Notes: generated from the letters alone by a model not told the origin. Shown: positions 9,736 through 64,000, numbered from the stretch's first letter. The stretch: DNA of 64,000 bases from an uncultured Rhizobium sp. (GCA_964580715.1 CAZOKU010000002.1:531-64530); one strand, 5' to 3'. Translations and numbers: made by a program.

Positions 9736-10056
9736 ATGAAAAAATTATTTTTTTTACTTTTCATTTCCATTTCCACCCAAACCTTCGCTCAAGAAAAAGA
9801 ATATCTAGTTCAAATCAAAGATCACCAATTTCAACCATCAGCGCTTGAAGTTCCTGCGAATGTCGAATTTAAATTAATCGTTGAAAATCTTGATAAAACC
9901 TTAGAAGAATTTGAAAGCAACGATCTAAAAAAAGAAAAACTTATTGGCGGAGGCAAAAAAATCACCATCAAAATCCAAGCACTAAAAACTGGCGAATATA
10001 AATTCTTCGGCGATTTTCACCAAAAAACTGCCCAAGGCAAAATTATTGTGAAATAA
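9736..10056 (+). CDS. Secreted cupredoxin-fold-like small protein
   Basis: 106 aa. Signal peptide MKKLFFLLFISISTQTFA. The pattern HQFQPSALEVPANVEFKLIVENLD...GEYKFFGDFH..AQGKIIV resembles cupredoxin_1-type domains, but the usual Cys copper ligand is not evident. Confidence 0.45.
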   Translation: MKKLFFLLFISISTQTFAQEKEYLVQIKDHQFQPSALEVPANVEFKLIVENLDKTLEEFESNDLKKEKLIGGGKKITIKIQALKTGEYKFFGDFHQKTAQGKIIVK

Positions 10057-10094
10057 TATAAAACCCCCAGCATCACTCTGGTTGCAGACATAGT

Positions 10095-10138
10095 CCAGTT
10101 GCTGTACGGAGTCTCGACTCCGTCCACACTTTCATATC
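10095..10138. repeat. Family-A palindromic element (variant core ACGGAGTC-TCG-GACTCCGT)
   Basis: ccagttgctgtacggagtctcgactccgtccacactttcatatc shares the GCTG...stem-loop...CAC..TTCAT(A/G)(T)C layout with the other copies. Confidence 0.75.
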
Positions 10139-10173
10139 CTAAAATAATTTTTTAGAAAAATTTATCTCAACCG

Positions 10174-11439
10174 CTAAACCCCCAGCATCACCAACTGATC
10201 AATCCTTACCACAACTCTCCTCGCAATATTTTCAGAACTTTCAATCACCTCAAAAGCACGCCCCGACATAGATTTTACCATATCAGTATCTTCAAAAAAC
10301 TTCTTAACCACCACAGCAATTTCTGCGCCAGAATCAAGCATCACACAAGCATTTTGCCGCTCTAACTTTTCATAAATTTCTTTAAAATTAAAAACTCCAC
10401 GACCAGAAATAACCGCACATCCAAGCTTAATTGGCTCGAATGGATTATGCCCACCAATTTCAAAAAGCGAACCTCCAATAAAAGAAAAATTACAAAGCGA
10501 ATAAAAAATTCCCATTTCGCCTAAAGTGTCAACCAAGTAAATTTCTGTAGAATCTTCAATCTTTCCTGCAACACTTCTTTGCGCAATTTTGAAATTTCTC
10601 AACAAAGCCTTAACTTCCTCTGCGCGATTTGGATGACGCAAAACTAAAATTGTTAATAAATCTGGAAATTCACTTTTTAACTTCTTATGCGCCGCAATCA
10701 CATATTCCTCTTCACCCTTGTGAGTGCTTGCTGCAAGCCACATTTTTCTTCCGCCAATTTGTGTTTTTATTTTTTCTAACTCATCAAAATTAACCGATAA
10801 ATTTCTTGCTTGCGACTTCAAATTTCCATAAAATAAAACTTCCTGCTTGGTCAATTTTGCAAATCGCTCTTTACTTTCAACCATCTGCACAAAAATCGCT
10901 GCAAAATAATCAAAAATATTAAAATTAATTTTCTTAGCAAAATGCCATTTTTTAAAAGATTTTTCTGACATTCTAGCATTCACTAAAAAACTTAAAATTC
11001 CACGATTGCGCGCTTCAAAAACAAGGTTTGGCCAAATTTCTGATTCAACAAAAATTGCCACTCTTGGCTTCCAAAAATCAAAAAAACTTTTAACGCAAAA
11101 ATATGAATCAATCGGCAAAAATTGATGCAAAACTCTGCCTTTAAATTCTGGCAATTTTTTATCTAAAATCGCTGCAGAAGTGAGAGTTGTAGTGGTAAAT
11201 AAAATCGTAATTTTTGGCGAAAAATTTAATAATTCTTCAATCAAAACCATCGCTGAATTTGCCTCACCAACACTCACGGCATGAAGCCAAACAATGTGAC
11301 CTTCTGGCCTCTTCACCGAAGACTTCCCCAGTCTTTCAAGAAAACGTTTTTTATCTTCTTTTTTATTAAGCAACCGCCAAAACAAATAAACCAACAAAAG
11401 CGGGTAAATAACAATCGAAATAATACGGTAAAAAATCAT
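10174..11439 (-). CDS. waaA: 3-deoxy-D-manno-octulosonic acid (Kdo) transferase WaaA/KdtA
   Basis: 421 aa. N-terminal membrane anchor, VWLHAVSVGE motif, and a glycosyltransferase N/C layout (GGSL...GGHNPFEP). Confidence 0.85.
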   Translation of the reverse strand: MIFYRIISIVIYPLLLVYLFWRLLNKKEDKKRFLERLGKSSVKRPEGHIVWLHAVSVGEANSAMVLIEELLNFSPKITILFTTTTLTSAAILDKKLPEFKGRVLHQFLPIDSYFCVKSFFDFWKPRVAIFVESEIWPNLVFEARNRGILSFLVNARMSEKSFKKWHFAKKINFNIFDYFAAIFVQMVESKERFAKLTKQEVLFYGNLKSQARNLSVNFDELEKIKTQIGGRKMWLAASTHKGEEEYVIAAHKKLKSEFPDLLTILVLRHPNRAEEVKALLRNFKIAQRSVAGKIEDSTEIYLVDTLGEMGIFYSLCNFSFIGGSLFEIGGHNPFEPIKLGCAVISGRGVFNFKEIYEKLERQNACVMLDSGAEIAVVVKKFFEDTDMVKSMSGRAFEVIESSENIARRVVVRIDQLVMLGV

Positions 11440-12895: not shown

Positions 12896-13267
12896 TCAAA
12901 AAATTATTTTAATTGGCTCAGCTTTCTTCGATGGAATTGATTGAATAAGACGAAAAATTGTTTCCAAATCACCAACATCCGTCAGCCTCAATTTACCATC
13001 TTCAGCAATCATTTTCAACTGGTGACAATTTGTCACCAGTTCACTTCCTTCCAGTTCTAGTCTTTCTTTAAGCTTATTCCAATATTTCCGCGCCTTCTGA
13101 AATTCATACTGCTCCGTCAAAGCAGCCACAACATCAACAATCGAAAAAAACCATTTCTGACTTTTTTCATCAAAATGACGACGAATTTTAAATTTTTCAA
13201 AAATAGCTGGAAGGCTAGTTTTGCTGGTGTTTTTCATATTAAATTTATTGTTATTATTAATCTTCAC
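12896..13267 (-). pseudogene. Truncated Bro-N-domain paralog (N-terminal domain only)
   Basis: 123 aa. FKIRRHFDEKSQKWFFSIVDVVAALT...LIQSIPSKKAEP parallels residues about 15-105 of the adjacent 286-aa protein (IRRTWYNEEWWFSVVDIVAALT...IIQSIPSSKAEP), then stops where the longer paralog continues with FKKWLAQVGYERI. Confidence 0.5.
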
Positions 13268-13275
13268 TAAATAAG

Positions 13276-14136
13276 TTAATTAATTTTCAATTTTTCCTTT
13301 TTATCAAAGGCAATATCCAAATAATTCTCCTTACTAATCACACTTCTTTTTAATTCCTTTTCAGTTGATTTTCGCGCACTGCCCGCAACCGCTCCGCCAC
13401 GCTTTGCAACTTTTTTACTTTTATTAAAATTATCTGGCTTTTCTTGTTTTGAAATTTCAGTGGTCACTTTCTCACCAAGCATCGTAAATATTAGCTCCAA
13501 GTCAGTCATGTTATCACGCAAATTGGCATTTGATTTGCTCGGAATATTTTTAAATTTTTTATATTCATTTGGCGTCATGCCAAATGTCGCTTTGGAAATT
13601 TCAGCAGTCAAAATTGCATAATCTTTTTCCGCCAAAATTCCTCTTTCTTTCCATTCATCAGTTAAATTTTGTCTTATCGCAATACCGCGCAATCTTTTAT
13701 CAATCCAATCTTTAGGATAACCTTTTTGCTCATAAAGCATTTTCATGCGCTGCTGTGCTAGCTCAGGATCTTCAATTTCCTTAATGCGCTCATAACCAAC
13801 TTGTGCAAGCCATTTTTTAAAGGGTTCTGCTTTTGATGATGGAATTGATTGAATAATACGAAAAGCACCTTCAACATTGGTGCAATTAATATTTTGAACT
13901 CCACCAATAGTTTGTATTGGAAGGGGGGTGGCAATTTGCCCCCACCCTTTTGATAATTCTTCATCCCTTCGACGCATATCTTTGATATATCCAGCAGGAT
14001 CAATAGAGTCTGTTAAAGCAGCAACAATATCAACCACACTAAACCACCATTCTTCATTATACCAAGTACGACGAATTTGTTTTTCTTTAAAAATTACTAA
14101 AGATTTTTCGTGGTTTAAGTTTTTTTTATTTTTCAT
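13276..14136 (-). CDS. Bro-N domain-containing protein (DinD / antirepressor-like family)
   Basis: 286 aa. Bro-N-like N-terminus (WWFSVVDIVAALT, IQSIPSSKAEPFKKWLAQVGYERIKEIEDPE) plus the conserved C-terminal part (LTDEWKERG..DYAILT.EI...GMTPNEYKKFK, LRDNMTDLEL). I recognise this widespread family from memory; it was not searched. Confidence 0.6.
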   Translation of the reverse strand: MKNKKNLNHEKSLVIFKEKQIRRTWYNEEWWFSVVDIVAALTDSIDPAGYIKDMRRRDEELSKGWGQIATPLPIQTIGGVQNINCTNVEGAFRIIQSIPSSKAEPFKKWLAQVGYERIKEIEDPELAQQRMKMLYEQKGYPKDWIDKRLRGIAIRQNLTDEWKERGILAEKDYAILTAEISKATFGMTPNEYKKFKNIPSKSNANLRDNMTDLELIFTMLGEKVTTEISKQEKPDNFNKSKKVAKRGGAVAGSARKSTEKELKRSVISKENYLDIAFDKKEKLKIN

Positions 14137-17684: not shown

Positions 17685-19880
17685 TTAAACTGCTATAGTT
17701 GGAGCAGCAGCATGACCAGCAATTGGAGAAGAAACTTCACCCGCACAACTCGGCGAAGTAGAAGGAATATTATCAACTGGAGTATTATCAAGTTTTGTCT
17801 CAACCCTGCTATCTCCAGCCCGATAAGCCATAAGCAAACTCTCTGCCAAAATAGATTTTGCTCGATTAATTGCATCTTCTGCATAAGCCGAATCTACTAA
17901 AATTCTTTTTTTATTAACATTTTCTCCAGTTCTATGATCAAAAACTTCCACCTCTTGATCAAAAGTTTTAACCCCAGCAGTTTCTGCAGCATAAGCAGCA
18001 AATTCTCTTCTTAAAACTTTTTTTCCATCCGCAAGTAAACGAGAATATTGTGGATTAGATTCATTTAAAACATCAACAACACTTCCCACACCACCAATAG
18101 ATTCATAACCCAAATAAGCCGAAAACTTTTTCTGCATTGTTTTAAAAAGAGCTTGTTGACGTTCTCTGTTTTCTGTAATATTTTCATCAAGACCTTCTAA
18201 ATGCGCTACAGCTCTTTTGATAACTTCATCTTTGTCTGCATCTTCACCTAGACTATCTTTAATTGCAATTATAGTATTAACAATATCTCCACTAAACAAA
18301 TCCTTAGCTATCGTTTTCTTATCACCATCCAAAATAAATTCCACTAATTTAAGCTTACCAAAAGCTTCCTCAATAGCTTCAAATTGCATTTCCGCAATTT
18401 TTACCGCCATTTCTTTCTTTCTTTCATCATTAGCTTGACCAAATTGTGCCAAAATATCTCTTAATTTATCCACCGAAGAATCTGTAATCTTATTTTTTGT
18501 CTTATAATGTTCCACTTCTTCATCCAAATGCTTAATCAAATAACCACCAGCAATAACAAATAAAAGCACTGGTTTCATAACTTGCACAGTTGAAAACAGC
18601 ATCCTTCCAATCTCATTATTAAAAAGCATAGTTTCAATATCACCAATATCAGAAATTAAAGGCACCTTATCCAGAAATCCCTCCACTAAATAATCAAGAT
18701 GCAACACTTCATATAACTTACCAAGACCAATCGGCAAATGCTTCGGAGCTTCCGCCACAGCTGCAGAAAATGGACCATCAAAAAGTGGACCAATAAGATC
18801 AGATATAATATCAAAATAATCAAGAAATGGAACAATAAAACCAAAAGGTGTAAAAAAAACTAAAACTGAAGTTATAGCTCTTTTCAAGATTATAGAATTA
18901 ATCTTATCCATCACTCCACTTTGATATTCAGAAGCAGATTCTTTAAACACCCCAGAAATCTTAGCATTTTCTTCATCAGATAATTTTTTTCTACTGTCTT
19001 CCATTACCTGTCTGCACTCATTCACCAAATCTCTAAGACCTTGCTCTGACAATATACTTAAAAAATGCGAGTTTTGACTTCTTAAAATCATTTCAAGAAG
19101 TTCTGGATCAATATGCTCTAACCTTGATAATTCTTCTAACCTAACCCTAGCAATTCGATTTAACTTCTCTCTATTTTCTATAAATTTTGTACTTTCATGA
19201 ACTCCGGGATTTTTTCCCATCATCCTATCAAAAAAGTTATTAAACCGAACGCTTAAATTTCCGGGAATATGTGATGTTGAAACCGGCGCTTCTATTATTT
19301 CTTTGATTTCTTGTAATGAAATGTCTTTTTGATCAAACACATCTTGCAACAACAGATCACATTTTTTTATTTCTTCTCCAACTACAAATTTTTCTCTTTG
19401 AAGATTCATAGCATAAGAAAAACTAGGCGCTCTAAGATGAACCCCAGGATTTTCTATTTTTCTTAAAACTTTCGGACTTTCACTCAGGCTAGAATGTTCT
19501 CCCTTTGGATTCCACTTCCATTTATCAGCAACATCTTTTCTTTTACGTTCTGCAACTGCCATCTGATCAATGGCTTTTGGATCATATACTGCGCCAGACA
19601 TTGCGGCAAAAACTTCCCTTCTCTCTTTTTCTAAATTAATTTGGTCATCTTTAAGACTTTTTTTTCTTTCTAACAAAAACTCTAGTGATTTCAAACCTTG
19701 CAAAGCTTTTCTAGAACCAGCAATTTCATCAATTCTTGTTCGAAAACCCTCAAGAACTTCTCCTGGAGCATAAAAGTCAGATACTAAAGTTTTCACTCTT
19801 TCTTGTAATTGTTCTATTGCTTCGCTTTGATCGCTTCGAATCGCTCCTGTTCTTCCTAAATTTTGAGAATCTCGAGACAT
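17685..19880 (-). CDS. Hypothetical 731-aa protein with central hydrophobic hairpins (orphan)
   Basis: Long uninterrupted ORF with no signal peptide. Coiled-coil-like charged N- and C-terminal regions. Hydrophobic segments ITSVLVFFTPFGFIVPFL and VMKPVLLFVIAGGYLI. Repeated NPGVH motif (ENPGVHLRAP, KNPGVHESTK). I recognise no family motif. Confidence 0.6.
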   Translation of the reverse strand: MSRDSQNLGRTGAIRSDQSEAIEQLQERVKTLVSDFYAPGEVLEGFRTRIDEIAGSRKALQGLKSLEFLLERKKSLKDDQINLEKERREVFAAMSGAVYDPKAIDQMAVAERKRKDVADKWKWNPKGEHSSLSESPKVLRKIENPGVHLRAPSFSYAMNLQREKFVVGEEIKKCDLLLQDVFDQKDISLQEIKEIIEAPVSTSHIPGNLSVRFNNFFDRMMGKNPGVHESTKFIENREKLNRIARVRLEELSRLEHIDPELLEMILRSQNSHFLSILSEQGLRDLVNECRQVMEDSRKKLSDEENAKISGVFKESASEYQSGVMDKINSIILKRAITSVLVFFTPFGFIVPFLDYFDIISDLIGPLFDGPFSAAVAEAPKHLPIGLGKLYEVLHLDYLVEGFLDKVPLISDIGDIETMLFNNEIGRMLFSTVQVMKPVLLFVIAGGYLIKHLDEEVEHYKTKNKITDSSVDKLRDILAQFGQANDERKKEMAVKIAEMQFEAIEEAFGKLKLVEFILDGDKKTIAKDLFSGDIVNTIIAIKDSLGEDADKDEVIKRAVAHLEGLDENITENRERQQALFKTMQKKFSAYLGYESIGGVGSVVDVLNESNPQYSRLLADGKKVLRREFAAYAAETAGVKTFDQEVEVFDHRTGENVNKKRILVDSAYAEDAINRAKSILAESLLMAYRAGDSRVETKLDNTPVDNIPSTSPSCAGEVSSPIAGHAAAPTIAV

Positions 19881-36760: not shown

Positions 36761-38440
36761 ATGCCAGCAGAAATAATAAAACTAGACAATATTCCACCAA
36801 CTAGCGGTGTTTATCAATTTTTTGATGCAAAAGACCGCGTTTTATATGTTGGAAAAGCCAAAAATCTTTACAAAAGAGTTGCCAGTTACACCAAAACTGA
36901 CAAGCTTTCACAGAGAATTTCTCACATGGTTTTTTTGGCACAAAAGCTGGAAATTATTCAAACTGAAAATGAAGTTGAAGCGCTGCTTCTGGAGCACAAT
37001 TTAATCAAAAAGCTTGAGCCCCGTTATAACATCTTGCTGCGCGATGATAAAACTTTTCCTTACATTCACATTACTAAGCATAATTTTCCACAAATCACCA
37101 AATATCGCGGGCCAAAAAAAGATGACGGGTTTTATTTCGGACCATTCGCCTCAGCCCATGATGTTAATCACACCATCGATGTTTTGCGCAAAAGTTTTTT
37201 GCTTAGAAATTGCTCTGATGCTGAATTTAAATCGCGCAAAAAACCTTGTCTTGAATATCAAATTAAAAAATGCTTCGCGCCTTGTGTGAATCTGGTTTTG
37301 CAGAATGATTATGAAACTGCTGTAAAAAACGCAGTTGAATTTTTAAACGGCAAATCTGCTGAAGTGCAAAAAAATTTGCTCGCTAAAATGCAAAAATTAA
37401 GCGCAGAAGAAGAGTTTGAAAAAGCCGCAATAATTCGCGATCAAATTAAATCTTTAAACAGCATTCAAACCAAGCAAAACATTAACTTACAAGACATTAA
37501 AAATGTTGATATTATCACGCTAAAACAGCTAAACAACATGACTTGCGTTTATATTTCTTTTTATCGCAACGGGCAAAATTATGGCGCAAAACCTTATTTC
37601 TATGAAATTGATAGCACTGAAAAACAAGAAGAATTTTTATCTGATTTTTTAGGACAATTTTATTTAAACCAAATTCCTGCAAGTGAAATTTTTCTAAATC
37701 TTGAAATAGCCGAGCAATCCTTAATGGAAGAGTTTTTAAGCAAGCTGGCGGGTTGTAAAGTTATCATAAAAATTCCTAAAATTGGCAGTAAATTGGCTTT
37801 AATCAAAGATCAGGAAAAAATCGCACTGCAAAATATTGAGCAAAAAATATTACAAAATTTAAATAATCGCGAATTGCTTTTAGAGATAAAAAAAGCTTTT
37901 GATTTACCAAAAATGCCACAAAAAATTGAAGTTTATGACAACAGCCACACCAGCGGAAGTAATGCTGTAGGGGTTTTAATCACCGCCGACATCAATGGCT
38001 TTGTTAAAAGCGGCTATCGCAAATTTAACATAAAATCAGCAACACCAAATTCAGAAACCAACATTCTTTACGGCAAAGACGACACTGCCATGATGCGCGA
38101 AGTTTTATTTCGCAGATTCTCAAAATTAGACAAATCTGAATATCCTGATTTAATCATTCTTGATGGTGGAAAACCACAACTATCAGCGGCTCAAGCAATT
38201 TTTGATGAATTAAAAATCAAAATTCCTTTTATTTGCATGGCCAAAGGCGAAAACCGCAACGCTGGTGAAGAAAAATTTCATCAAACCAACAAAGAAATTG
38301 TAACTTTTCCCAAAAATCACCCCGCCCTACATTATCTGCAAAGATTACGCGACGAAGCCCACCGCTTTGCGATTATGACTCATCGCAAAAAACGTAGCAA
38401 AGAAACTTTTTTATGGGCCACTAATTCTCACGCCTCCTGA
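36761..38440 (+). CDS. uvrC: Excinuclease ABC subunit C (UvrC), apparently lacking the C-terminal (HhH)2 domain
   Basis: 559 aa. GIY-YIG (GVYQFFDAKDRVLYVGKAKNLYKRV), UVR domain (EEEFEKAAIIRDQIKSL) and the endonuclease V-like domain (IEVYDNSHTSG...RDEAHRFAI). The ORF ends about 20 aa after the EAHRF motif, inside the converging 994-aa gene. Confidence 0.85.
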   Translation: MPAEIIKLDNIPPTSGVYQFFDAKDRVLYVGKAKNLYKRVASYTKTDKLSQRISHMVFLAQKLEIIQTENEVEALLLEHNLIKKLEPRYNILLRDDKTFPYIHITKHNFPQITKYRGPKKDDGFYFGPFASAHDVNHTIDVLRKSFLLRNCSDAEFKSRKKPCLEYQIKKCFAPCVNLVLQNDYETAVKNAVEFLNGKSAEVQKNLLAKMQKLSAEEEFEKAAIIRDQIKSLNSIQTKQNINLQDIKNVDIITLKQLNNMTCVYISFYRNGQNYGAKPYFYEIDSTEKQEEFLSDFLGQFYLNQIPASEIFLNLEIAEQSLMEEFLSKLAGCKVIIKIPKIGSKLALIKDQEKIALQNIEQKILQNLNNRELLLEIKKAFDLPKMPQKIEVYDNSHTSGSNAVGVLITADINGFVKSGYRKFNIKSATPNSETNILYGKDDTAMMREVLFRRFSKLDKSEYPDLIILDGGKPQLSAAQAIFDELKIKIPFICMAKGENRNAGEEKFHQTNKEIVTFPKNHPALHYLQRLRDEAHRFAIMTHRKKRSKETFLWATNSHAS

Positions 38441-41395
38441 ACCACCTGCAGGCTCAACTATGGATCCAGAAGAAGAGCGTGAAGCTGGACCAACAACTGC
38501 TCCAGATGAAGAGTTAGAAGACCCAACAGTTGTTCCACCTTTTGAAGATGAGGCAGAACCAACCATAACTCCTTTTTTACCACCGCTAGAACCAACCACA
38601 ACTCCTGATTTTTCCCTTCCTCCAACATCAGCAACACTGGTTCCTTTATTACCATATTTCTGAACTTTTGATGAACCATATCTTCCAACCTTTTTAGCAA
38701 GTTTTTCTGTACCACGCATTGCACGTCTTTGTGCTTTCCTTAAGAAATTACCAGTGCTTGACATCATCTTAGTCATAGAAGCGGCCCAAGGAGCAGGGCC
38801 TCCAGCACCAACCAACTTCTGAGCGAATTGCGTAATCTTATCCATAAATGCCGATAAAATAAACAATATAAATGCACCCTTCAGAATTGCCATAAACTTG
38901 GTTTTATTCATCGTTACCATAAGAATAGGAATTCCAAAACCAAGACTTCTAAACACTGAAGACACTTTGTAATTTACAATATTCATTATGCAGTAAATAC
39001 TTTCATCAGCTCCTGGTGTGGTGCAATCAATGGTTTTTTCTTCCTTCACACCATCTCCACTGAATAAAACATCACCAACTACTACCTTATCAAAAACAAT
39101 AATCACAAAAGCAAGATAACAAAACAAAATCATTGGCTGCAAACAAAAGCCCAGAACCTGTCGCCACCAACCATCGAACACATTTTTAGTACGATTAAAA
39201 AGTGCCAAAGTTATAGTGACAGGAGAAACATATATCAAAATCGTAATTGCAATAATTGCCACCAACATTATATGTATTGCTCGAATCACTAAAGACAACA
39301 TGAAGAACCCTAAGATCAAACTAAACACCACGAAATAAATACCAAGTCCACCAGTAAAAAACCCAGCAACCACTAACATAATTAAATTTGGAACTGTTGC
39401 TGAAGGTCCGTAACCCATAGCACGGGCCAATTTACAATCTAGTGTATCCCAAGGTCTTAAATATTCTTTTCCAGGAGGATAGGCTCGAGTTGCTGGATTA
39501 TATCTGGTATCCTCATTTTTATCTTTATAGTTAAAGCGAGGAAATTGACAACCATCTAGCCGATTTTGATTTACACTAGGACTGCCATAGTATCCATCAT
39601 CACCTAAATTGAACACCATGTTCGCCAAATAAGAAGAAGATTTAATAACACCAGAAGCAAATTGATCTTGCCATGCAGTGCCCAGCGCAAAATAAGAAAC
39701 TAATCCAATTTTTAATATGTAGGGAAGCAACTGTTTTTTTGCAACTGGCTGAAGCCCAAGCAAAATCATTGCACCAAAAAGCATCACCGAAATCGACATC
39801 GCAACTTTAATTACGGTTCGTAATCCCGATACTATCTTAGAAAAGAAAGAAGGAGTTGTTAAAGTATCACCATTTTTATACTTAACCCCACTATGTGGAC
39901 ATGGATTTTGTGTAGTAGTAACCACAATATCTGCCGTAGCATCAAAAAGAGGAATCTCAGAAGAATCATTACATATCGTATGCCCTGCCCTGTTAAAAAA
40001 TAAATTTTCTACAGTCTCTTTAAAACATTGTATAACTGGAGCAGAAAAATGCCTGATATTACTCGTCAATATTCCTGCATTATAAGAATAAACATTCTGC
40101 GAATCCCCTTCCATATTAGCGCAAGCAGAAGAAACAAAAGCTTGTGCGAAAGCAGGCTGCTTAATGGTTGGAATAATCGGAAGTTTTATGCAATGGTTCA
40201 TATATTGACAAGAGTTTGTCATATAACCAGGATTATTTGGGTCCGGATTTTGTGTTTCTGTTCCACCGCCAAGATTATGATTAAAAGGACAAACAGAATA
40301 TGTTTTTGCACAAATATAATTTGGCACAGTTTTAGATGGAAAAATATCAAAAGTTATCGCATCGACAATACATCTGCTGCCCAATTTACAAACTTTATAG
40401 TCTTTTCCTTTATCAATACACATTGTGTTTTGACTTCTTTGAACACAACAATCATAAGCATTTTGCGCAGCAGCTCTTTCATCTTCCGTAGCAAATTTAT
40501 ATAATAAAAACCGATTGCAAGCATAAACCGGAGCATTTCCTGCGCCAGTGTAATAATATTTTTGATTATCACTGTCATATCCAAGTCTTATTAACCTTGT
40601 AGGACCATCCCACGGGTTTGTACAAGCATCATCTCCATTATCCGTATATTCCATTCCACCATAAAAATATTCACGATAAAGCTTATTTGTCATATGGCGA
40701 CTTAGGTCACTATCAGAATTTATTCCATAACTGTTACATTCTGCAGGAATGCCCCCTGGACCGAATATAGTTTCAATACATTTACGATAACCACCCTTAC
40801 CTTTCACCAAAGGACTATTAGAGCCACTGTCAGCAGCACTGCCATCAGCCTTGCTCCATCCTGACCAAGCAGCGCCACAAACCCTTGTGCTATCATAAGC
40901 AGATTTTGCTGCTGCATAAACAACCCCCATAGCAGCAATCGTAGCAGCAGTTGAAGCAACCAAAGCCCAAGCAGTAGCACAACAAAAAGGATTAGAAACA
41001 CTAGTTGCCGCACAAGTTGCATTATTTTGTGCGATCTCCATAATTTTTGTTGGGGACATTGCAACCCCAGCAGCTATTTGGCGTGCGGTTTCAGCATTAT
41101 ATATCGTATTAGCACAAGCATTATTTGCCGCATATGACGCCGCAGCACCAACCAATCCAACACCAGCAACCAAAGACGCACAAACTGGATTAGAAATTTG
41201 CCAATCTAGATCTATACCACCAAAGGGAGTAAATGAAATTTCAGCAACATCACAACGATCTTGAGTATAACTTTTAACCGTTCTTGGCCCATCATAAATC
41301 GCATAAGCATTGTTTGTTTTACAGACAGCAGAAAAAAACAACAATAAAGCTAGAGAGTAACAAAAATTTTTTTTCCAAAAATTATAAAACATCAA
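38411..41395 (-). CDS. Large Cys-rich polytopic membrane protein, tentatively TrbL/VirB6-like
   Basis: 994 aa. Signal/anchor sequence, an approximately 500-aa N-terminal region with more than 20 Cys, at least 6 TM helices (e.g. LIMLVVAGFFTGGLGIYFVVFSLILGFFMLSLVIRAIHIMLVAIIAITILIYVSP, then FDGWWRQVLGFCLQPMILFCYLAFVIIVF, reminiscent of the TrbL/VirB6 core) and a Gly/Ser-rich tail (GSSGGKKGVMVGSASSSKGGTTVGSSNSSSGAVVG). The family assignment is from pattern memory only. Confidence 0.4.
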   Translation of the reverse strand: MMFYNFWKKNFCYSLALLLFFSAVCKTNNAYAIYDGPRTVKSYTQDRCDVAEISFTPFGGIDLDWQISNPVCASLVAGVGLVGAAASYAANNACANTIYNAETARQIAAGVAMSPTKIMEIAQNNATCAATSVSNPFCCATAWALVASTAATIAAMGVVYAAAKSAYDSTRVCGAAWSGWSKADGSAADSGSNSPLVKGKGGYRKCIETIFGPGGIPAECNSYGINSDSDLSRHMTNKLYREYFYGGMEYTDNGDDACTNPWDGPTRLIRLGYDSDNQKYYYTGAGNAPVYACNRFLLYKFATEDERAAAQNAYDCCVQRSQNTMCIDKGKDYKVCKLGSRCIVDAITFDIFPSKTVPNYICAKTYSVCPFNHNLGGGTETQNPDPNNPGYMTNSCQYMNHCIKLPIIPTIKQPAFAQAFVSSACANMEGDSQNVYSYNAGILTSNIRHFSAPVIQCFKETVENLFFNRAGHTICNDSSEIPLFDATADIVVTTTQNPCPHSGVKYKNGDTLTTPSFFSKIVSGLRTVIKVAMSISVMLFGAMILLGLQPVAKKQLLPYILKIGLVSYFALGTAWQDQFASGVIKSSSYLANMVFNLGDDGYYGSPSVNQNRLDGCQFPRFNYKDKNEDTRYNPATRAYPPGKEYLRPWDTLDCKLARAMGYGPSATVPNLIMLVVAGFFTGGLGIYFVVFSLILGFFMLSLVIRAIHIMLVAIIAITILIYVSPVTITLALFNRTKNVFDGWWRQVLGFCLQPMILFCYLAFVIIVFDKVVVGDVLFSGDGVKEEKTIDCTTPGADESIYCIMNIVNYKVSSVFRSLGFGIPILMVTMNKTKFMAILKGAFILFILSAFMDKITQFAQKLVGAGGPAPWAASMTKMMSSTGNFLRKAQRRAMRGTEKLAKKVGRYGSSKVQKYGNKGTSVADVGGREKSGVVVGSSGGKKGVMVGSASSSKGGTTVGSSNSSSGAVVGPASRSSSGSIVEPAGGSGGVRISGP

Positions 41396-57775: not shown

Positions 57776-59305
57776 ATGAAAAAATCGTCATTTTTTAAAA
57801 CAACAAACCTTTCTTTAAACAGCCAACTGGAAGAGGATTTTTCAAAAAATAAAAAAAATAATTTTACCACCTCAATTAAAATATATGGCAACTTTTTCGA
57901 AGATGCTTCTGTAATTTTTTCAATATTTCTCTGTTCATTTTTCATTGCCTCAACTTGGTTTTTAGCTTATTTAATGAATAGCGAAAAACATCAGATTAAA
58001 TCTGCTTTAGAAATTCAATCTTCAAAACTGGAAAAATCTTTTATCGATCGCATCAAGCAAACAGAAGCTTTAGCAGAAGAAATTTCCAACGAAATCAAAA
58101 TCAACCCAAGCAATAAACAACAAATTTATCTTTCATTAAAAAAATTTCAGATCAGTCCAAAATTAAATAAAACTTTTGCATGGTCAGAATTTTTATGGAT
58201 TGATGACAAACACCAGATAACAATCAACAGCTCTAAAGAATCTTTTAAAAAACCAATTGATTTATCAATACAAGCGCAAATTCCCCCAACTAAACGAAAA
58301 CCACAAAAACTTTATATTGGCGATCCAATAATTGAAGAAAACAGCAAAAAACTGGTGATTCCAGCTTCATATGGTGTTTTAAATAATAAAAACCAATATG
58401 TCGGAACAATTTTGATAGGCCTTGAAATTGAAGGATTAGCCAAAATCATGAATGAAGAAATGGAAACCAGCCACATTTCTGCTGATCTTATTGATCTTAA
58501 CAATCAACCATTATTTTTTGTTAATAAAGAATCTTTTGGAACCATAAAAGATCGCACCAAAATCAACGATCGTTATGAAGAATTTTTATTCAAAAAAGTT
58601 ATTTTTAACAACAAAGTCAGCACTGCAAGCAACATCAATTTAATGATTGATCAACATGCAATTTTAGTAAAAAAACTAGATAATCTTCCTTATTTATTTG
58701 TTTTATATTATGACAAAAACGCTATTACTTCTGACTTAAAAAAATCAATTCTTTCCCGCTTACTCGAGCTAACATTATTTTTTACCACTTCTGCAATTTT
58801 ATTATTGTTTGTTTTTATTCAAGAAAAAAAACGTCAATCAAAAATTATTTCAATTAAAGATTTAAATGATCAACTTCACGAAATAAAATCAAAATTTTTA
58901 CTGCTTTTAGTAAAAGAGTTAAAAGATGTTTCTCTGCAATTAAAATATAAAACAGATCTTGCCAAAGAACAAAAAAAACAAACTAATCAATCAATTATTT
59001 CTGACAGCGAAGATGAAATATCAAGGCTGAATAACGAACTATCAGAATTAATTGAAGACCTCAAAGAATTGGGAAATTTATCCTACAAAAAAAATGATGA
59101 TGATATAAAAAAAATAAGCTTACAGGCAATTTATCTTTTAGACATTCAAAAAAATAATGACAATTTTAACGAGCTAAACAACCAAATCGAAGGAATTTTA
59201 TATCAATTATTTTTGATTAATCCTAAATATTTGAAAAAAATTTTCTCACAACTTAAACCAAGCAATGTTAGAATTAGAAATTTTTTTAAAGAACTTGGCA
59301 TTTAA
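57776..59305 (+). CDS. Membrane sensor-like protein: periplasmic Cache-like domain plus a degenerate DHp-like helix, with no ATPase domain
   Basis: 509 aa. TM1 VIFSIFLCSFFIASTWFLAYL, an approximately 270-aa extracytoplasmic region (KKLVIPASYGVLNNKNQYVGTILIGLEIEGL), TM2 LLELTLFFTTSAILLLFVFI, then KSKFLLLLVKELKDVSL where kinases have [14 protein letters not shown] (His absent), and a coiled-coil tail. Confidence 0.45.
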   Translation: MKKSSFFKTTNLSLNSQLEEDFSKNKKNNFTTSIKIYGNFFEDASVIFSIFLCSFFIASTWFLAYLMNSEKHQIKSALEIQSSKLEKSFIDRIKQTEALAEEISNEIKINPSNKQQIYLSLKKFQISPKLNKTFAWSEFLWIDDKHQITINSSKESFKKPIDLSIQAQIPPTKRKPQKLYIGDPIIEENSKKLVIPASYGVLNNKNQYVGTILIGLEIEGLAKIMNEEMETSHISADLIDLNNQPLFFVNKESFGTIKDRTKINDRYEEFLFKKVIFNNKVSTASNINLMIDQHAILVKKLDNLPYLFVLYYDKNAITSDLKKSILSRLLELTLFFTTSAILLLFVFIQEKKRQSKIISIKDLNDQLHEIKSKFLLLLVKELKDVSLQLKYKTDLAKEQKKQTNQSIISDSEDEISRLNNELSELIEDLKELGNLSYKKNDDDIKKISLQAIYLLDIQKNNDNFNELNNQIEGILYQLFLINPKYLKKIFSQLKPSNVRIRNFFKELGI

Positions 59306-59870: not shown

Positions 59871-59922
59871 ACTGTCGCAAATCAAAATTTTCTAAGAAAT
59901 TTTTGATTTGCGACAGTGCCAT
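59871..59922 (+). promoter_or_regulatory. 17-bp-stem hairpin plus GATTTGCGACAGTGCC motif, 22 nt upstream of the first pilin-like gene (copy 2 of 2)
   Basis: actgtcgcaaatcaaaa-ttttctaagaaat-ttttgatttgcgacagt gcc. It shares AAATCAAAA..TTTGATTTGCRACAGTGCC with 44384-44425. Confidence 0.45.
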
Positions 59923-59944: not shown

Positions 59945-61045
59945 ATGCAAAAAAAGCCTAAGGCATTCAGCCTAATTGAGCTATCCATCGTTATTACAAT
60001 TATCGCAATCCTCGTTGTTGGCGCTGTTTCTGTGTCAATTTTTAATGACACTAAAGAAAAAATTAAACTCACTCAAGAGCGCATGAATGAAATTTATAAA
60101 GCACTTGGAATTTACGCCGCAAAAAATGGAAAATTGCCCTGCCCCGCCTCTATGAAAGTTGAATCAAGCGATGCATCTTATGGTTTTGCAGCAGATTGCT
60201 CATACACTTGCACTTCCACCAGCTTCCCATCTTCAAGCCTAGGAATCTGGTGTTCCTCAGCTGCAACAAACATTTGGTATGGCATGATTCCAGTTTCAAC
60301 TCTGGATCTACCGATTAGTTATGCCACCGACGCCTTTGGCACTAGATTTAGCTATTTTGTTTTACGCGGCTACACCAACACCACTGATTTTGCAAGCGAG
60401 AACACTTCAACTTTCATTAATGGCAGCGCAAATTATAGTTACGACTCAGGAGACAGCGAAGGAGTTGGAGCCGCCCGCATCAGAGTCTATGAAAATTTAA
60501 ATGGAATTAACCGAAGAATCACCGACAATGCAGCATTTGTTATCGTAAGCCACGGGCCTAATAAATTTGGCGGATGGAATGACACAGCAACAACACAAAA
60601 TGCTGAATCATCCGTTTCAAATTTTGAAAGAGCAAATTATATAACCCCCTCAACAACAGACGCCACAAACATCGGCATGGCCACTTTTTATTCCTCTTAC
60701 ATCACCGCAAAGCATGACACTTCAAAAGTTTTTGATGATATTGTTTTGTATAAAACCATCGATCAACTTGTACTCGATTTCAACATACTCTATTTAGTGC
60801 CTTGTGACAAGCCTGATGGCAGCGGCAACAGTTTATATCCACTAAATAAACTAAACATCTATGACCAATATGGCAGTTCTACTTCTTCTTGGCCATCTGG
60901 AAACACGGCGCCAAAATATGGCGCAATATATAACAGCACCTCAACTTGCAGTTCACCTTATAACAAATGGGTAACTTATCCAAATCGCCGATGTGGTGCA
61001 TTCGGAATTTGGGAAACCACTACCACTGAAAATTGTTTTAATTAA
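59945..61045 (+). CDS. Large prepilin-type N-terminal methylation-domain protein, paralog 1
   Basis: The ATG at 59945 gives MQKKPKA|FSLIELSIVITIIAILVVGA (class III signal, Glu at +5). The track ORF begins upstream at a TTG (59903). It shares the blocks listed in the findings with the three downstream genes. Confidence 0.8.
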   Translation: MQKKPKAFSLIELSIVITIIAILVVGAVSVSIFNDTKEKIKLTQERMNEIYKALGIYAAKNGKLPCPASMKVESSDASYGFAADCSYTCTSTSFPSSSLGIWCSSAATNIWYGMIPVSTLDLPISYATDAFGTRFSYFVLRGYTNTTDFASENTSTFINGSANYSYDSGDSEGVGAARIRVYENLNGINRRITDNAAFVIVSHGPNKFGGWNDTATTQNAESSVSNFERANYITPSTTDATNIGMATFYSSYITAKHDTSKVFDDIVLYKTIDQLVLDFNILYLVPCDKPDGSGNSLYPLNKLNIYDQYGSSTSSWPSGNTAPKYGAIYNSTSTCSSPYNKWVTYPNRRCGAFGIWETTTTENCFN

Positions 61046-61051
61046 AAAATT

Positions 61052-62182
61052 ATGTCACTATTGCAAAAAAAACCTTCGGCATTCAGCCTAATCGAGCTTT
61101 CGATCGTGCTTGCAATCATCTCAATTTTAGTTACAGGCGCTTTATCGCTTTCAACAAACAACGCCAACAAAGAAAAAATCCGCATCACCAACGAAAGAAT
61201 CAACGAAGTTTATAAAGCGATGGGAATTTATCTCGCTAAAAACGGCAAACTTCCTTGCCCAGCTTCAGTTAAAATTGACAAAACCAACCAATCTTATGGA
61301 AGTGCTGCCGATTGTTCTTACGACTGCAGCAGCAGCTTTCCTTCTTCAAGCCTTGGCATTTGGTGTGCCAAAAACAACACCAATGTTTGGTATGGCATGA
61401 TTCCCACTAAAACTCTAAAACTTTCCTCTGATTATGCCGAAGATGCATTTGGCAATCGTTTCAGCTATTTCGTTTTGCGCGGCTATACCAACACCAGCAC
61501 ATTTGGCACTGAAAATGACGCAACTTTCGTTGGCAACGGCGCTCCAAATAATTACACCGCTACGGTAGATAATTTAAGCATAGGAACCAACCGCATCCGC
61601 GTTCATGAAACATTAAACTTTGGAAACCCAAAGCCAATCACTTATAACGCAATTTTTGTTATTGTAAGCCACGGACCAAACGGCTATGGCGCTTGGAACT
61701 CTTATTCAACCACTCAAAACAGTCTTTCCACCAGCACTTCCGAAAGTGGAAATTACATTTCTGGAACAGTCGATTCACCTTCCACAGGAAAAGCCACCTT
61801 CTACAATTATCCATCTGATTATCTCACCGCATATAATGATGCTGATGGAATTTTTGATGATATTGTTTTTTTTAAAACCGTCGACCAGATAGTTTCAGAT
61901 TTTAACATCATGCATTTAATTCATTGCGATAAACCATTTGGCACCAACACCTATCCCGCAAATAATTCCGCACGAATCACCGATTCCAAAAGCGACACCG
62001 GATACTTCGAATGGACCAACAGCACTGATTCGAATCGCCCGATTAAATATGGACAAATAGTTGAAGCCAACTCTTCTGGATCATGTGCTTCACCTTACAC
62101 CAAAGTTCTTGCCAAAGCAACCCGCCGCTGTGGTGCCTTTGGAATCTGGGATCCAGGACTAACATATAATTGCTTAAGATGA
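61052..62182 (+). CDS. Large prepilin-type N-terminal methylation-domain protein, paralog 2
   Basis: 376 aa. MSLLQKKPSA|FSLIELSIVLAIISILV. Conserved blocks NERINEVYKAMGIYLAKNGKLPCPAS, WYGMIPTKTL, FGNRFSYFVLRGYTN, FVIVSHGPNGYGAWN, FDDIVFFKT and RRCGAFGIW. Confidence 0.8.
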   Translation: MSLLQKKPSAFSLIELSIVLAIISILVTGALSLSTNNANKEKIRITNERINEVYKAMGIYLAKNGKLPCPASVKIDKTNQSYGSAADCSYDCSSSFPSSSLGIWCAKNNTNVWYGMIPTKTLKLSSDYAEDAFGNRFSYFVLRGYTNTSTFGTENDATFVGNGAPNNYTATVDNLSIGTNRIRVHETLNFGNPKPITYNAIFVIVSHGPNGYGAWNSYSTTQNSLSTSTSESGNYISGTVDSPSTGKATFYNYPSDYLTAYNDADGIFDDIVFFKTVDQIVSDFNIMHLIHCDKPFGTNTYPANNSARITDSKSDTGYFEWTNSTDSNRPIKYGQIVEANSSGSCASPYTKVLAKATRRCGAFGIWDPGLTYNCLR

Positions 62183-63177
62183 GAATAAACAAAACCGCCT
62201 TCAGTTTAATTGAATTATCAATTGTCATTCTAATTATTGCTGCCATCGCTGCTTTAACTTTAGCCAATAATATCAACAATAATTTAACTCAAAAAAACAA
62301 ACTCACCAATGACCGCATTCGCGAAATTTACAAAGCAATGGGAATTTATCTTGCCAAAAACGGCAAGCTTCCTTGCCCAGCCCCAATTAACTTAACCAGA
62401 GACAATGCCAATTATGGCAAAGCCGCCTCCACCTGCACCAGCGCGCCAAGCTCTGGATCTGGCTATTGGCAAAGCTCTGATTCTGTAAGTTCTAACGTCT
62501 ATTACGGCGCAGTTCCAATCAGAAACCTTGAACTCTCTTCTTACTTCGCCGAAGATGGCTTTGGATCAAAATTTGGCTATGCCATCATCAGCGGCTTCAC
62601 TGACTCAACCAAATTTGGCACTTCTAATAATTCCACTAACGGAACTTATGCTATAAGTGGCGGCTCTGATCGCCTAGTGATTAAAGAACTTTTAACCAAC
62701 GGCACCTCACAAATAACCAACGATGCAATGTTTGTGATCATCAGCTATGGCGCCAACAAAAGCGGGGCTTTTGACGCAATGTCAACCACCCAAAACACTG
62801 CTTCAAGCGTCACTGAAGAATTAAACAACACTGGAACTCTCAGCACAGGAGCTGGCTCAACTAACGCTTTTGATAAAATATTTTACTCTTCTTCAATCTC
62901 CAGCGGATTTGATGACATAGTGTTTTACAAAAGCCGTACCGACATGGTGCAAGATTTCAATCTGATGTATTTATTATTTTGCGACACTTCATCTGGCGCA
63001 ATAACTGACGCTAAAAGCACCACTGGAAGCTTCACTTGGAACATAAGCACTGCCCGCTACGGCGGAATTTATGCCGCCACCAGCGGCACTTGTAACAACC
63101 CCACTGCCGTAACTTACCCCGCCAGAAGGTGTGGCCTAAACGGCTGGGAAGGCGTCAACGTAATTGACTGCACTTAA
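62179..63177 (+). CDS. Large prepilin-type N-terminal methylation-domain protein, paralog 3
   Basis: The ATG at 62179 overlaps the paralog-2 stop as ATGA and gives MRINKTA|FSLIELSIVILIIAAIA (the track start at 62170 is a TTG). Conserved blocks DRIREIYKAMGIYLAKNGKLPCPAP, YYGAVPIRNL, FGSKFGYAIISGFTD, FVIISYGANKSGAFD, FDDIVFYKS and RRCGLNGW. Confidence 0.8.
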   Translation: MRINKTAFSLIELSIVILIIAAIAALTLANNINNNLTQKNKLTNDRIREIYKAMGIYLAKNGKLPCPAPINLTRDNANYGKAASTCTSAPSSGSGYWQSSDSVSSNVYYGAVPIRNLELSSYFAEDGFGSKFGYAIISGFTDSTKFGTSNNSTNGTYAISGGSDRLVIKELLTNGTSQITNDAMFVIISYGANKSGAFDAMSTTQNTASSVTEELNNTGTLSTGAGSTNAFDKIFYSSSISSGFDDIVFYKSRTDMVQDFNLMYLLFCDTSSGAITDAKSTTGSFTWNISTARYGGIYAATSGTCNNPTAVTYPARRCGLNGWEGVNVIDCT

Positions 63178-63205
63178 ACATAAATATTTTTGCTTTTGCT
63201 ATAAA

Positions 63206-64000
63206 ATGGAAAAAAATAAAACAAAAACCGCCTTCACCTTTATCGAGCTAGCACTTGTAATCACAATAGTCGGCATCATCATCGCCATCCTAGTTCCTTC
63301 TTACAACAACTTCTCCAACAATTATAAAACAAAATTAACCAACGAACGCATTAAAATAATTTATAACGCTTTAGGAAATTACGCCAGAAGCAACAAACAC
63401 CTGCCTTGCCCAGCATCAATGCTTTATATAAACAGCGATGCAAATTATGGAATTTCTGAAAATTGTCTAATTGCATCTCCTTCTGGAAATGGTAAAATTT
63501 GGTATTCTGCTTCATCTCAACACAATAATTTGTGGTATGGAATGGTGCCAGTTAAAACTCTTGGCCTTAATCCAGAAGTTGCTAATGATGGATTTGGAAA
63601 TCGCTTCGCTTACGCTGTTTTACGAGGATATGCCGACCCTAATTATTTTGGAAGTGATGACAATTCAACATTCACTGGAACTGGCTATAACTATAATTAT
63701 GGTTCACCCGGCAACAGTTACATAGGATTATTAGGAATGGATCGCATTAGAATCTTAGAAGCAAATGCTAAACTAAGTGGAAGCGGGGTAACTGCAAAAA
63801 TCGTAACTGATGAAGCAATATTTATTATAATAAGCTATGGACCAAATGGCAGTGGAGCATGGAAACCAAATTCCGCATCACCGAATAGCTTCCCAATAAG
63901 TGTAAATGAACAAGGCAATGCAGTTTCGTACAGCAATAATGGACTAGCAGCACAAAATTACTACTCATCAAATTTTTTCTTATATTCTACAAATTATAAC
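63206..64000 (+). CDS. Large prepilin-type N-terminal methylation-domain protein, paralog 4 (3' end beyond the window)
   Basis: Absent from the track because there is no stop. The ATG at 63206 gives MEKNKTKTA|FTFIELALVITIVGIIIAILV...NERIKIIYNALGNYARSNKHLPCPAS...LWYGMVPVKTLGL...GFGNRFAYAVLRGYAD...IFIIISYGPNGSGAW. The frame is open through 64000. Confidence 0.75.
   Translation, partial: MEKNKTKTAFTFIELALVITIVGIIIAILVPSYNNFSNNYKTKLTNERIKIIYNALGNYARSNKHLPCPASMLYINSDANYGISENCLIASPSGNGKIWYSASSQHNNLWYGMVPVKTLGLNPEVANDGFGNRFAYAVLRGYADPNYFGSDDNSTFTGTGYNYNYGSPGNSYIGLLGMDRIRILEANAKLSGSGVTAKIVTDEAIFIIISYGPNGSGAWKPNSASPNSFPISVNEQGNAVSYSNNGLAAQNYYSSNFFLYSTNYN

Follow-up and report, generated by a model that had tools for sequence, protein, structure and literature searches.

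A tandem array of very large prepilin-type proteins with alanine at the −1 position: a probable operon of type IV filament subunits from an uncharacterised protein family in a freshwater Rickettsiales genome

The 3' end of a 64,000-nucleotide stretch of DNA from an uncultured Rhizobium sp. (GCA_964580715.1 CAZOKU010000002.1:531-64530; the whole stretch that was analysed is called the window below) carries four consecutive genes for large, mutually related proteins that begin with a prepilin-type signal. We consider it probable that these genes form an operon encoding type IV filament subunits that are paralogous, very large and members of an uncharacterised family, and that their products are likely to assemble into a heteromeric adhesive filament or a tip assembly. 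Prepilin-type subunits are already known as a kind; of this family, its fold as compared by Foldseek, its systematic Ala at −1 and its conserved four-gene locus, we found no description in the literature. The four genes are the following:

59945-61045, plus strand: paralog 1, 366 aa; leader MQKKPKA, then FSLIEL; PF07963 25.4 bits, TIGR02532 24.4 bits
61052-62182, plus strand: paralog 2 (P0001), 376 aa; leader MSLLQKKPSA, then FSLIEL
62179-63177, plus strand: paralog 3 (P0009), 332 aa; leader MRINKTA, then FSLIEL; start codon overlapping the stop codon of paralog 2 (ATGA)
63206-64000 within the window, plus strand: paralog 4 (P0210), first 265 codons of 370 aa; leader MEKNKTKTA, then FTFIEL

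The array had been noticed in an initial reading of the DNA made from the sequence alone (the original prediction), and the coordinates, common strand and spacers that it gave for the four packed genes were all reproduced. Successive genes are separated by 6 nt, by a 4-nt ATGA overlap (−4) and by 28 nt, and genes 1-3 end in TAA, TGA and TAA, respectively. Spacing of this kind implies co-expression of the four genes, which would then form one co-transcribed unit, a single operon. The calculated mature proteins of approximately 359, 366, 325 and 361 aa bear out the unusual size that had been proposed for them, and each paralog consists of the prepilin-type signal, a helix of about 52 residues and a globular part of 260-300 residues. 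The original prediction also had the array running on past the edge of the window. This did not hold, because a complete 370-aa protein (P0210), found in a search of representative sequences, has first 265 residues identical to the window translation of gene 4 and is placed on the same 69,978-nt NCBI contig. Gene 4 is therefore predicted to end at about 64318, with its last 318 nt beyond the window, and among the top matches checked in the representative search with the globular profile there was no fifth paralog from this contig. The array is thus closed at four genes, and only the tail of gene 4 lies outside. The G+C content of the array genes is 36-44% per gene (60001-64000), compared with 27-29% for the genes immediately upstream and a window mean of 35%.

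All four N-termini have a short basic leader of 7-10 residues followed by A↓F(S/T)(L/F)IEL, where the arrow marks the predicted cleavage site, and then a hydrophobic stretch. This is the class III signal peptide of type IV pilins, with Phe at +1 and Glu at +5 in every case (FSLIEL or FTFIEL). Genes 1 and 2 scored 25.4 and 25.7 bits against PF07963 (N_methyl), above its 21.2-bit cut-off, and genes 3 and 4 scored 15.8 and 17.0 bits, below it. Genes 1-3 exceeded the 16.3-bit cut-off of TIGR02532; gene 4 reached 14.4 bits and so fell just under both cut-offs, although its motif is the same. A regular expression for the class III signal applied to all six frames of the 64 kb matched these four open reading frames (ORFs) only. 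Translation and the two profiles together confirm the prepilin-type signal, the Ala at −1 and the Glu at +5 that had been described for the whole set.

The departure from the PROSITE-style motif is at −1, where all four proteins have Ala in place of Gly. The original prediction presented this as an oddity, and it does occur throughout the array, but it is not peculiar to it. Among the 138 nearest representatives the −1 residue is Ala in 112, Gly in 7 and Asn in one, the 18 others being truncated or irregular, which gives Ala in 112 of the 120 with a readable motif. Close relatives nearly all read A↓FSLIELS and distant ones G↓FSLIELS, and AFSLIELS with Glu at +5 is maintained in more than 100 divergent relatives. 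Pilin-like genes of the same genomes that are unrelated to the family also have Ala at −1, an example being the Laminin_G_3-like pilin of L087 (one of the loci of relatives, which carry L numbers here). Some arrays are mixed: L034, L036 and L038 hold both Ala and Gly, and gene 2 of L002 (11029-12126) has Ser (SKSS↓FTLIEL). Mixing of this sort suggests a single peptidase serving all subunits, one that probably accepts small residues generally. A separate variation was seen at L087, where gene b (10001-11089) has Tyr at +1 (KKRA↓YTLLEL). Judged from these sequences, Ala at −1 is a trait of the lineage and of the family, and it is unusual here for its consistency, not in principle. As a precedent we take streptococcal ComGC, a Com pilin cleaved after Ala, although this is a small pilin of monoderm hosts with a role in DNA uptake, and the likeness to it is N-terminal only (weak ComGC and ComGE matches). 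PilD has likewise been described as cutting "at a glycine or alanine", making Ala a recognised alternative to Gly (PMC3244431).

Pairwise identity among the four paralogs is 41-59%, with paralogs 1 and 2 at 59%. The ladder of conserved blocks drawn up in the original prediction is real, and its consensus describes the first two genes well in essence, but it is too tight for genes 3 and 4, which follow it more loosely: gene 3 has YYGAVP, gene 4 has ASPN where TTQN was expected, and the last block of gene 4 has no Trp. The variable segments had been called rich in Ser, Thr and Asn, and so they are, these residues accounting for 37.6% of the variable segments compared with 19.4% of the conserved columns.

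The globular part corresponds to no Pfam or NCBIfam model, since all matches cover the N-terminus only, and a PDB search with a profile built from 58 relatives matched only the helices of solved pilins. Together with the Foldseek results given below, this agrees with the failure to recognise the domain at first reading. A globular profile from which the helix had been removed matched 3,454 representative clusters at E ≤ 1e-3, 895 at E ≤ 1e-10 and 113 at E ≤ 1e-30, and among the 150 matches listed nearly all full-length ones start at about residue 62-80 of the target. On the strength of these matches we regard the proteins as a large pilin family without a Pfam or NCBIfam model. One-genome-per-species searches placed its members in environmental, largely lake-derived, metagenome-assembled genomes (MAGs) of Rickettsiales, and found shorter, distant relatives in Micavibrio and other Alphaproteobacteria, in Azonexus/Rhodoferax/Methylovorus and in Magnetococcales. 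Of the 138 nearest representatives, 31 are longer than 500 aa. Three of the large proteins were checked (P0225, P0250 and P0018; 600-880 aa), and each has one or two Gly_rich_2 (PF21722) domains after a four-Cys module; from this domain order they are clearly modular versions of the same pilin.

AlphaFold2 gave confident models for paralog 2 (predicted local distance difference test, pLDDT, 83.6; predicted template modelling score, pTM, 0.85) and paralog 3 (pLDDT 86.0; pTM 0.84), with a helix at residues 13-64 and 10-61, respectively, followed in both by β-sheets. As predicted structures, the two models have the general plan of a type IV pilin, a helix of about 50 residues on a β-sheet. When both models were compared with the PDB, and one of them with viral structures, Foldseek returned nothing better than E 0.3. 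The weak, non-significant neighbours comprised CofA, PilE, Myxococcus xanthus PilA, CCP/sushi modules and the ectodomains of class-B G protein-coupled receptors (GPCRs), and the CCP and GPCR superpositions were poor (target-normalised TM-score 0.3-0.37).

The last 55-105 residues form a C-terminal module. Across 28 aligned relatives, four Cys and one Trp of this module are invariant, with sushi-like spacing; in the window, the module of gene 4 is without the Trp. The Pfam model HRM, the hormone-receptor domain of class-B GPCRs, gave weak matches to 10 of the 28 relatives (best E 2e-4, 22.1 bits compared with a cut-off of 26.2), Sushi touched one of the 28, and a GABA-B sushi domain appeared at E 0.12. 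All of these matches are below threshold, and the four modules of the window matched neither Sushi/CCP (PF00084) nor HRM (PF02793) even at E ≤ 10. A sushi or HRM identity for the module was accordingly dropped, and the likeness in sequence is a lead, not a membership.

Assembly genes were sought with E. coli GspC/D/E/F/G/K/L/M/O and HofB/C, with the Azonexus secretin, ATPase and platform protein, and with the secretin and peptidase of L019 as queries. No GspD, GspE, GspF, GspO, HofB or HofC homologue was found in the window by phmmer or jackhmmer. A Pfam scan of 20 further window ORFs gave none for pilus assembly, and the rest were judged to be housekeeping genes from their translations, PilM/N/O/P not having been profile-searched. 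Both searches agree with the original prediction, which had seen no machinery near the array, and pilin genes without nearby machinery are normal; such an absence carries no information on the remainder of the genome. Among relatives the situation is different. At L019, a Gly-type Rickettsiales MAG, two paralogs are immediately preceded by genes for a secretin (PF00263) and an A24 prepilin peptidase, and this is the only relative in which a peptidase was seen to adjoin paralogs. Azonexus and about 10 other loci, among them some of other Betaproteobacteria, have an MshL-like secretin (246 bits compared with a cut-off of 250), an ATPase with an MshE-type, cyclic di-GMP-binding N-terminal domain, a GspF-like platform protein, two unknown proteins, a family member and a GspH-like pilin. 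An alphaproteobacterial contig holds an MshEN ATPase, a platform protein, a tetratricopeptide repeat protein and a prepilin peptidase together. The compact cluster of Azonexus hydrophilus (L073, 2865-11307), which has similar counterparts at L050, L058, L060, L065 and L070, includes two proteins without a Pfam or NCBIfam match, then the distant family member and the GspH-like pilin. A homologue search from the L019 peptidase, together with four contigs, led only to genomes without a traceable Ala-type array. What looked like an assembly ATPase near Ala-type short pilins at L067 proved to be VirB11 of a type IV secretion system. The gene linkage of the relatives would tie the family to type IV filament machines. 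Taken together, the Glu +5 motif kept over a large and diverged family, the pilin architecture of the models and the physical linkage of relatives to a peptidase, a secretin and an ATPase argue for filament subunits.

The N-terminal part raises the question of whether the proteins might instead be pseudopilins of a type II secretion-like or MSH-like machine, forming a short periplasmic piston that moves substrates through a secretin. We think this unlikely. The first 65 or so residues, up to the "Y..NGKLP" turn, are most like GspG: hhalign aligned residues 5-69 with E. coli GspG at a probability of 95.8, and TIGR01710 gave partial matches down to 1e-7. The compact clusters of distant relatives, with their secretin, MshE-type ATPase and GspF-like platform protein, would also suit such a machine. 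However, all four proteins score only 18-32 bits, over profile positions 2-61, far under the 88.85 bits that a full-length GspG (TIGR01710) match has to exceed. Nothing aligns beyond residue ~69, the proteins are 2.5 times larger than GspG, and there are no gsp genes in the window. A GspG-like core extending beyond the helix was considered and dropped because the hhalign alignment stops there. By eye we take "SHGPNxxG ... FDDIV" to recall "SLGADGxxG ... DDI" of GspG, a likeness that no alignment confirmed. The bulky, fast-evolving domains, rich in Ser/Thr/Asn and in Cys, would suit an exposed surface and not a periplasmic piston, and the Gly-rich or lectin-like modules added in relatives would fit ligand binding outside the cell.

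The array sits at a conserved housekeeping address, between pgpA and nuoH. The gene order at L087 is ilvC, glmU, SH3, secF, serS, dapE, pgpA, four paralogs and nuoH-I-J-K, that at L002 and L001 is pgpA, three paralogs and nuoH, and the window has the same order as these loci up to pgpA. Relatives generally have two to four paralogs in tandem. In a neighbour-joining tree, window genes 1 and 2 cluster together as a recent duplication of the gene 1 found in L001 and L002, and gene 3 of the window falls with gene 2 of those two arrays; positional orthologues are also maintained in the lineages L008/L013/L015 and L009/L011. An assignment of gene 4 to a positional orthologue by BLAST was dropped, its distances to all relatives being much the same.

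In comparisons of the window with L002 or L087, identity is 31-44% for the pilin-like proteins and 65-92% for the flanking proteins, so that the paralogs diverge about twice as fast as the flanking genes. For genes 1 and 2 the ratio of non-synonymous to synonymous substitution rates (dN/dS, Nei-Gojobori) was 0.23 over the whole length, with 0.14 for the blocks and 0.33 for the variable segments; with dS at about 1.5 or saturated, these values support only the statement that there is no sign of dN/dS above 1. The paralogs evolve fast without a pairwise sign of positive selection. The original prediction had spoken of a diversifying family, and the much faster divergence than that of the neighbours supports this, but the dN/dS below 1 and the retention of the paralogs as positional orthologues do not.

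These data bear on a further possibility, that the four proteins are alternative major subunits and that the surface of the filament is altered, for antigenic or host-range variation, by employing a single one of them at once or by changing their proportions. Most of the differences between the paralogs fall in the predicted exposed variable segments, their divergence is about double that of the flanking genes, and genes 1 and 2 reveal one recent duplication, all of which such a system might produce. We nevertheless find it improbable. Co-transcription is suggested by the close packing of the genes and by the start/stop overlap, no internal promoter excess and no invertible element were found, and the shared DNA blocks, at 60-80% identity, are too diverged for cassette-type gene conversion. 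Positional orthologues are retained, and pairwise dN/dS is below 1 everywhere. That each paralog holds its position across relatives, at 31-44% identity beside neighbours at 65-92%, points to non-redundancy, and with dN/dS below 1 this positional retention would fit co-assembled, non-redundant subunits better than a system of variation cassettes.

It is very doubtful that the proteins are not filament subunits at all, with an uncleaved N-terminus that would do no more than anchor a surface or periplasmic domain after the loss of the assembly machine from the lineage. In favour of this, no machinery was seen near any Ala-type array, Ala for Gly at −1 could weaken cleavage, and the distribution of type IV pilus genes in crown Rickettsiales is patchy (PMC10847448). 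Against it, a cleavage and methylation motif with Glu at +5 is conserved in more than 100 diverged relatives, which would hardly be expected of proteins that are neither processed nor assembled. Arrays mixing Ala, Gly and Ser at −1 (L034, L036, L038 and L002) suggest one common peptidase, and in Gly-type relatives there is physical linkage to genes for a peptidase and a secretin.

Each of these three alternatives is less well supported than a role as filament subunits, for which we envisage the following course. The precursor of each paralog would be inserted in the inner membrane, where a prepilin peptidase would cut after the Ala at −1, so that the mature chain would start with Phe and have Glu as its fifth residue. 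Polymerisation through the N-terminal helix of about 52 residues would follow, carried out by a type IV filament machine whose genes would lie in another part of the genome. The bulky outer part, predicted to be β-rich, Ser/Thr/Asn-rich and disulfide-bonded, would make up the exposed surface, ending in the module of four Cys and, in most members, one Trp. We infer that an aquatic Rickettsiales bacterium may use such a filament to attach to a host or prey cell. Type IV pilus genes have been reported from basal, from DDG-clade (Deianiraeaceae-containing) and from aquatic Rickettsiales, with a proposed role in host attachment (PMC10847448, PMC9352585).

Several points weigh against this account. 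Searches of the window and of the 10 kb around the Ala-type arrays detected no prepilin peptidase, no assembly ATPase, no platform protein and no secretin. At 35-40 kDa the subunits are far larger than any major pilin known to us, and this size makes a role in the body of the fibre uncertain. Known tip complexes have four minor pilins that are dissimilar, whereas the paralogs here are alike: they are not a canonical tip set (FimU-PilVWX or GspHIJK), being 41-59% identical, and the GspH and GspJ models match N-terminal fragments only. The data do not distinguish between a fibre role and a tip role, and adhesion is suggested only by analogy and by the lifestyle of the lineage. A bolder proposal, which we put forward as a speculation with little likelihood, would be a hitherto unseen, thick type IV filament confined to aquatic Rickettsiales and their allies, with a new outer fold, a C-terminal sushi/HRM-like domain of eukaryotic type that binds ligands at the host cell surface, and a peptidase whose preference has shifted from Gly to Ala.

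In comparison with known systems, the proteins are like type IVa major pilins (PilA/PilE) in the basic leader, Phe at +1, Glu at +5, the helix of about 50 residues with a β-sheet and the C-terminal Cys pairs. They differ from them in being 2-3 times larger, in the Ala at −1, in the occurrence of four similar paralogs per operon, in a globular part without a detectable sequence or fold match and in the absence of pilB, pilC and pilD nearby. Modular pilins (Streptococcus sanguinis PilB and PilC, CofB of enterotoxigenic Escherichia coli and GspK) have been proposed to sit at filament tips and bind ligands (PMC8179133). The extra bulk on a pilin module is shared with these, and relatives of the window proteins add Gly_rich_2, with neighbouring pilins showing weak, sub-cut-off Laminin_G_3 matches. 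In contrast to modular pilins, however, the extra mass here is seemingly built into and after the pilin sheet, with no recognisable post-linker graft, and where modular pilins are usually single genes there are four paralogs. The MSHA-type (MSH) system comes into view through the distant Gly-type relatives, which lie downstream of an MshL-like secretin, an MshE-related ATPase and a GspF-like platform protein. This link is confined to distant relatives and does not extend to the Ala-type Rickettsiales arrays, and no MshA/B/C/D-type model matched; only the helix of a solved MshA did so (9lab_B, E 0.013). With Sushi/CCP and HRM the common feature is the four-Cys module with sushi-like spacing in relatives.

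Other features lie next to the array or elsewhere in the window. Upstream of paralog 1, the 126-nt gap from the pgpA stop to the paralog start contains one further element:

59871-59917, no strand assigned: near-perfect palindrome of 47 bp, an inverted repeat with 23-nt arms, 96% complementary and 1 nt apart

The palindrome may serve pgpA as a terminator or the array as an operator; L002 has no equivalent intergenic space, and an Rfam scan of the window found no RNA family. Between dapE and pgpA lies a 509-aa ORF (57776-59305, plus strand) with no Pfam match and a G+C content of 26.8% compared with 35% for the window. It has no counterpart in the syntenic loci L002 and L087 and looks like a lineage-specific insertion directly upstream of the pilin operon. 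In relatives, a second class of pilin-like genes occurs 3-6 kb from the arrays (L087 19356-20243; L020 3580-4434; L014 3993-4907 and 4870-5691). Those of L087 and L020 combine a prepilin signal with a weak match to Laminin_G_3 (a concanavalin A-like lectin domain) below the Pfam cut-off, and at L014 the weak lectin match and the prepilin signal are split over the two adjacent ORFs. Ala is found at −1 in L087 19356-20243 and L014 4870-5691. The contig of the window may end just before the equivalent gene.

Further into the window, a 993-aa protein (38411-41392, minus strand) has a TrbL/VirB6 domain; its N-terminal half is rich in Cys and its tail in Gly and Ser. We take it to resemble the enlarged VirB6-like proteins of Rickettsiales type IV secretion systems, and as a VirB6/TrbL-like gene it would fit a Rickettsiales origin. 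Two adjacent Bro-N domain proteins, of a phage-associated family, are encoded among housekeeping genes (12896-13237 and 13276-14136, minus strand), flanked by ORFs that by eye are presumably fumC and ubiH. A 731-aa ORF (17685-19880, minus strand) is without a Pfam match.

The family bears on how strict the Gly rule of prepilin peptidases is, and pilin-finding tools that require Gly at −1 would presumably miss most of it. To our knowledge, the composition of Rickettsiales pili is so far unexamined. It has been proposed that early, extracellular Rickettsiales used type IV pili to attach to their hosts (PMC9352585, PMC10847448). The locus described here points to a specific, large, conserved and unannotated subunit family for these pili, and its genes offer targets for structural, antibody or cryo-electron tomography work on host attachment.

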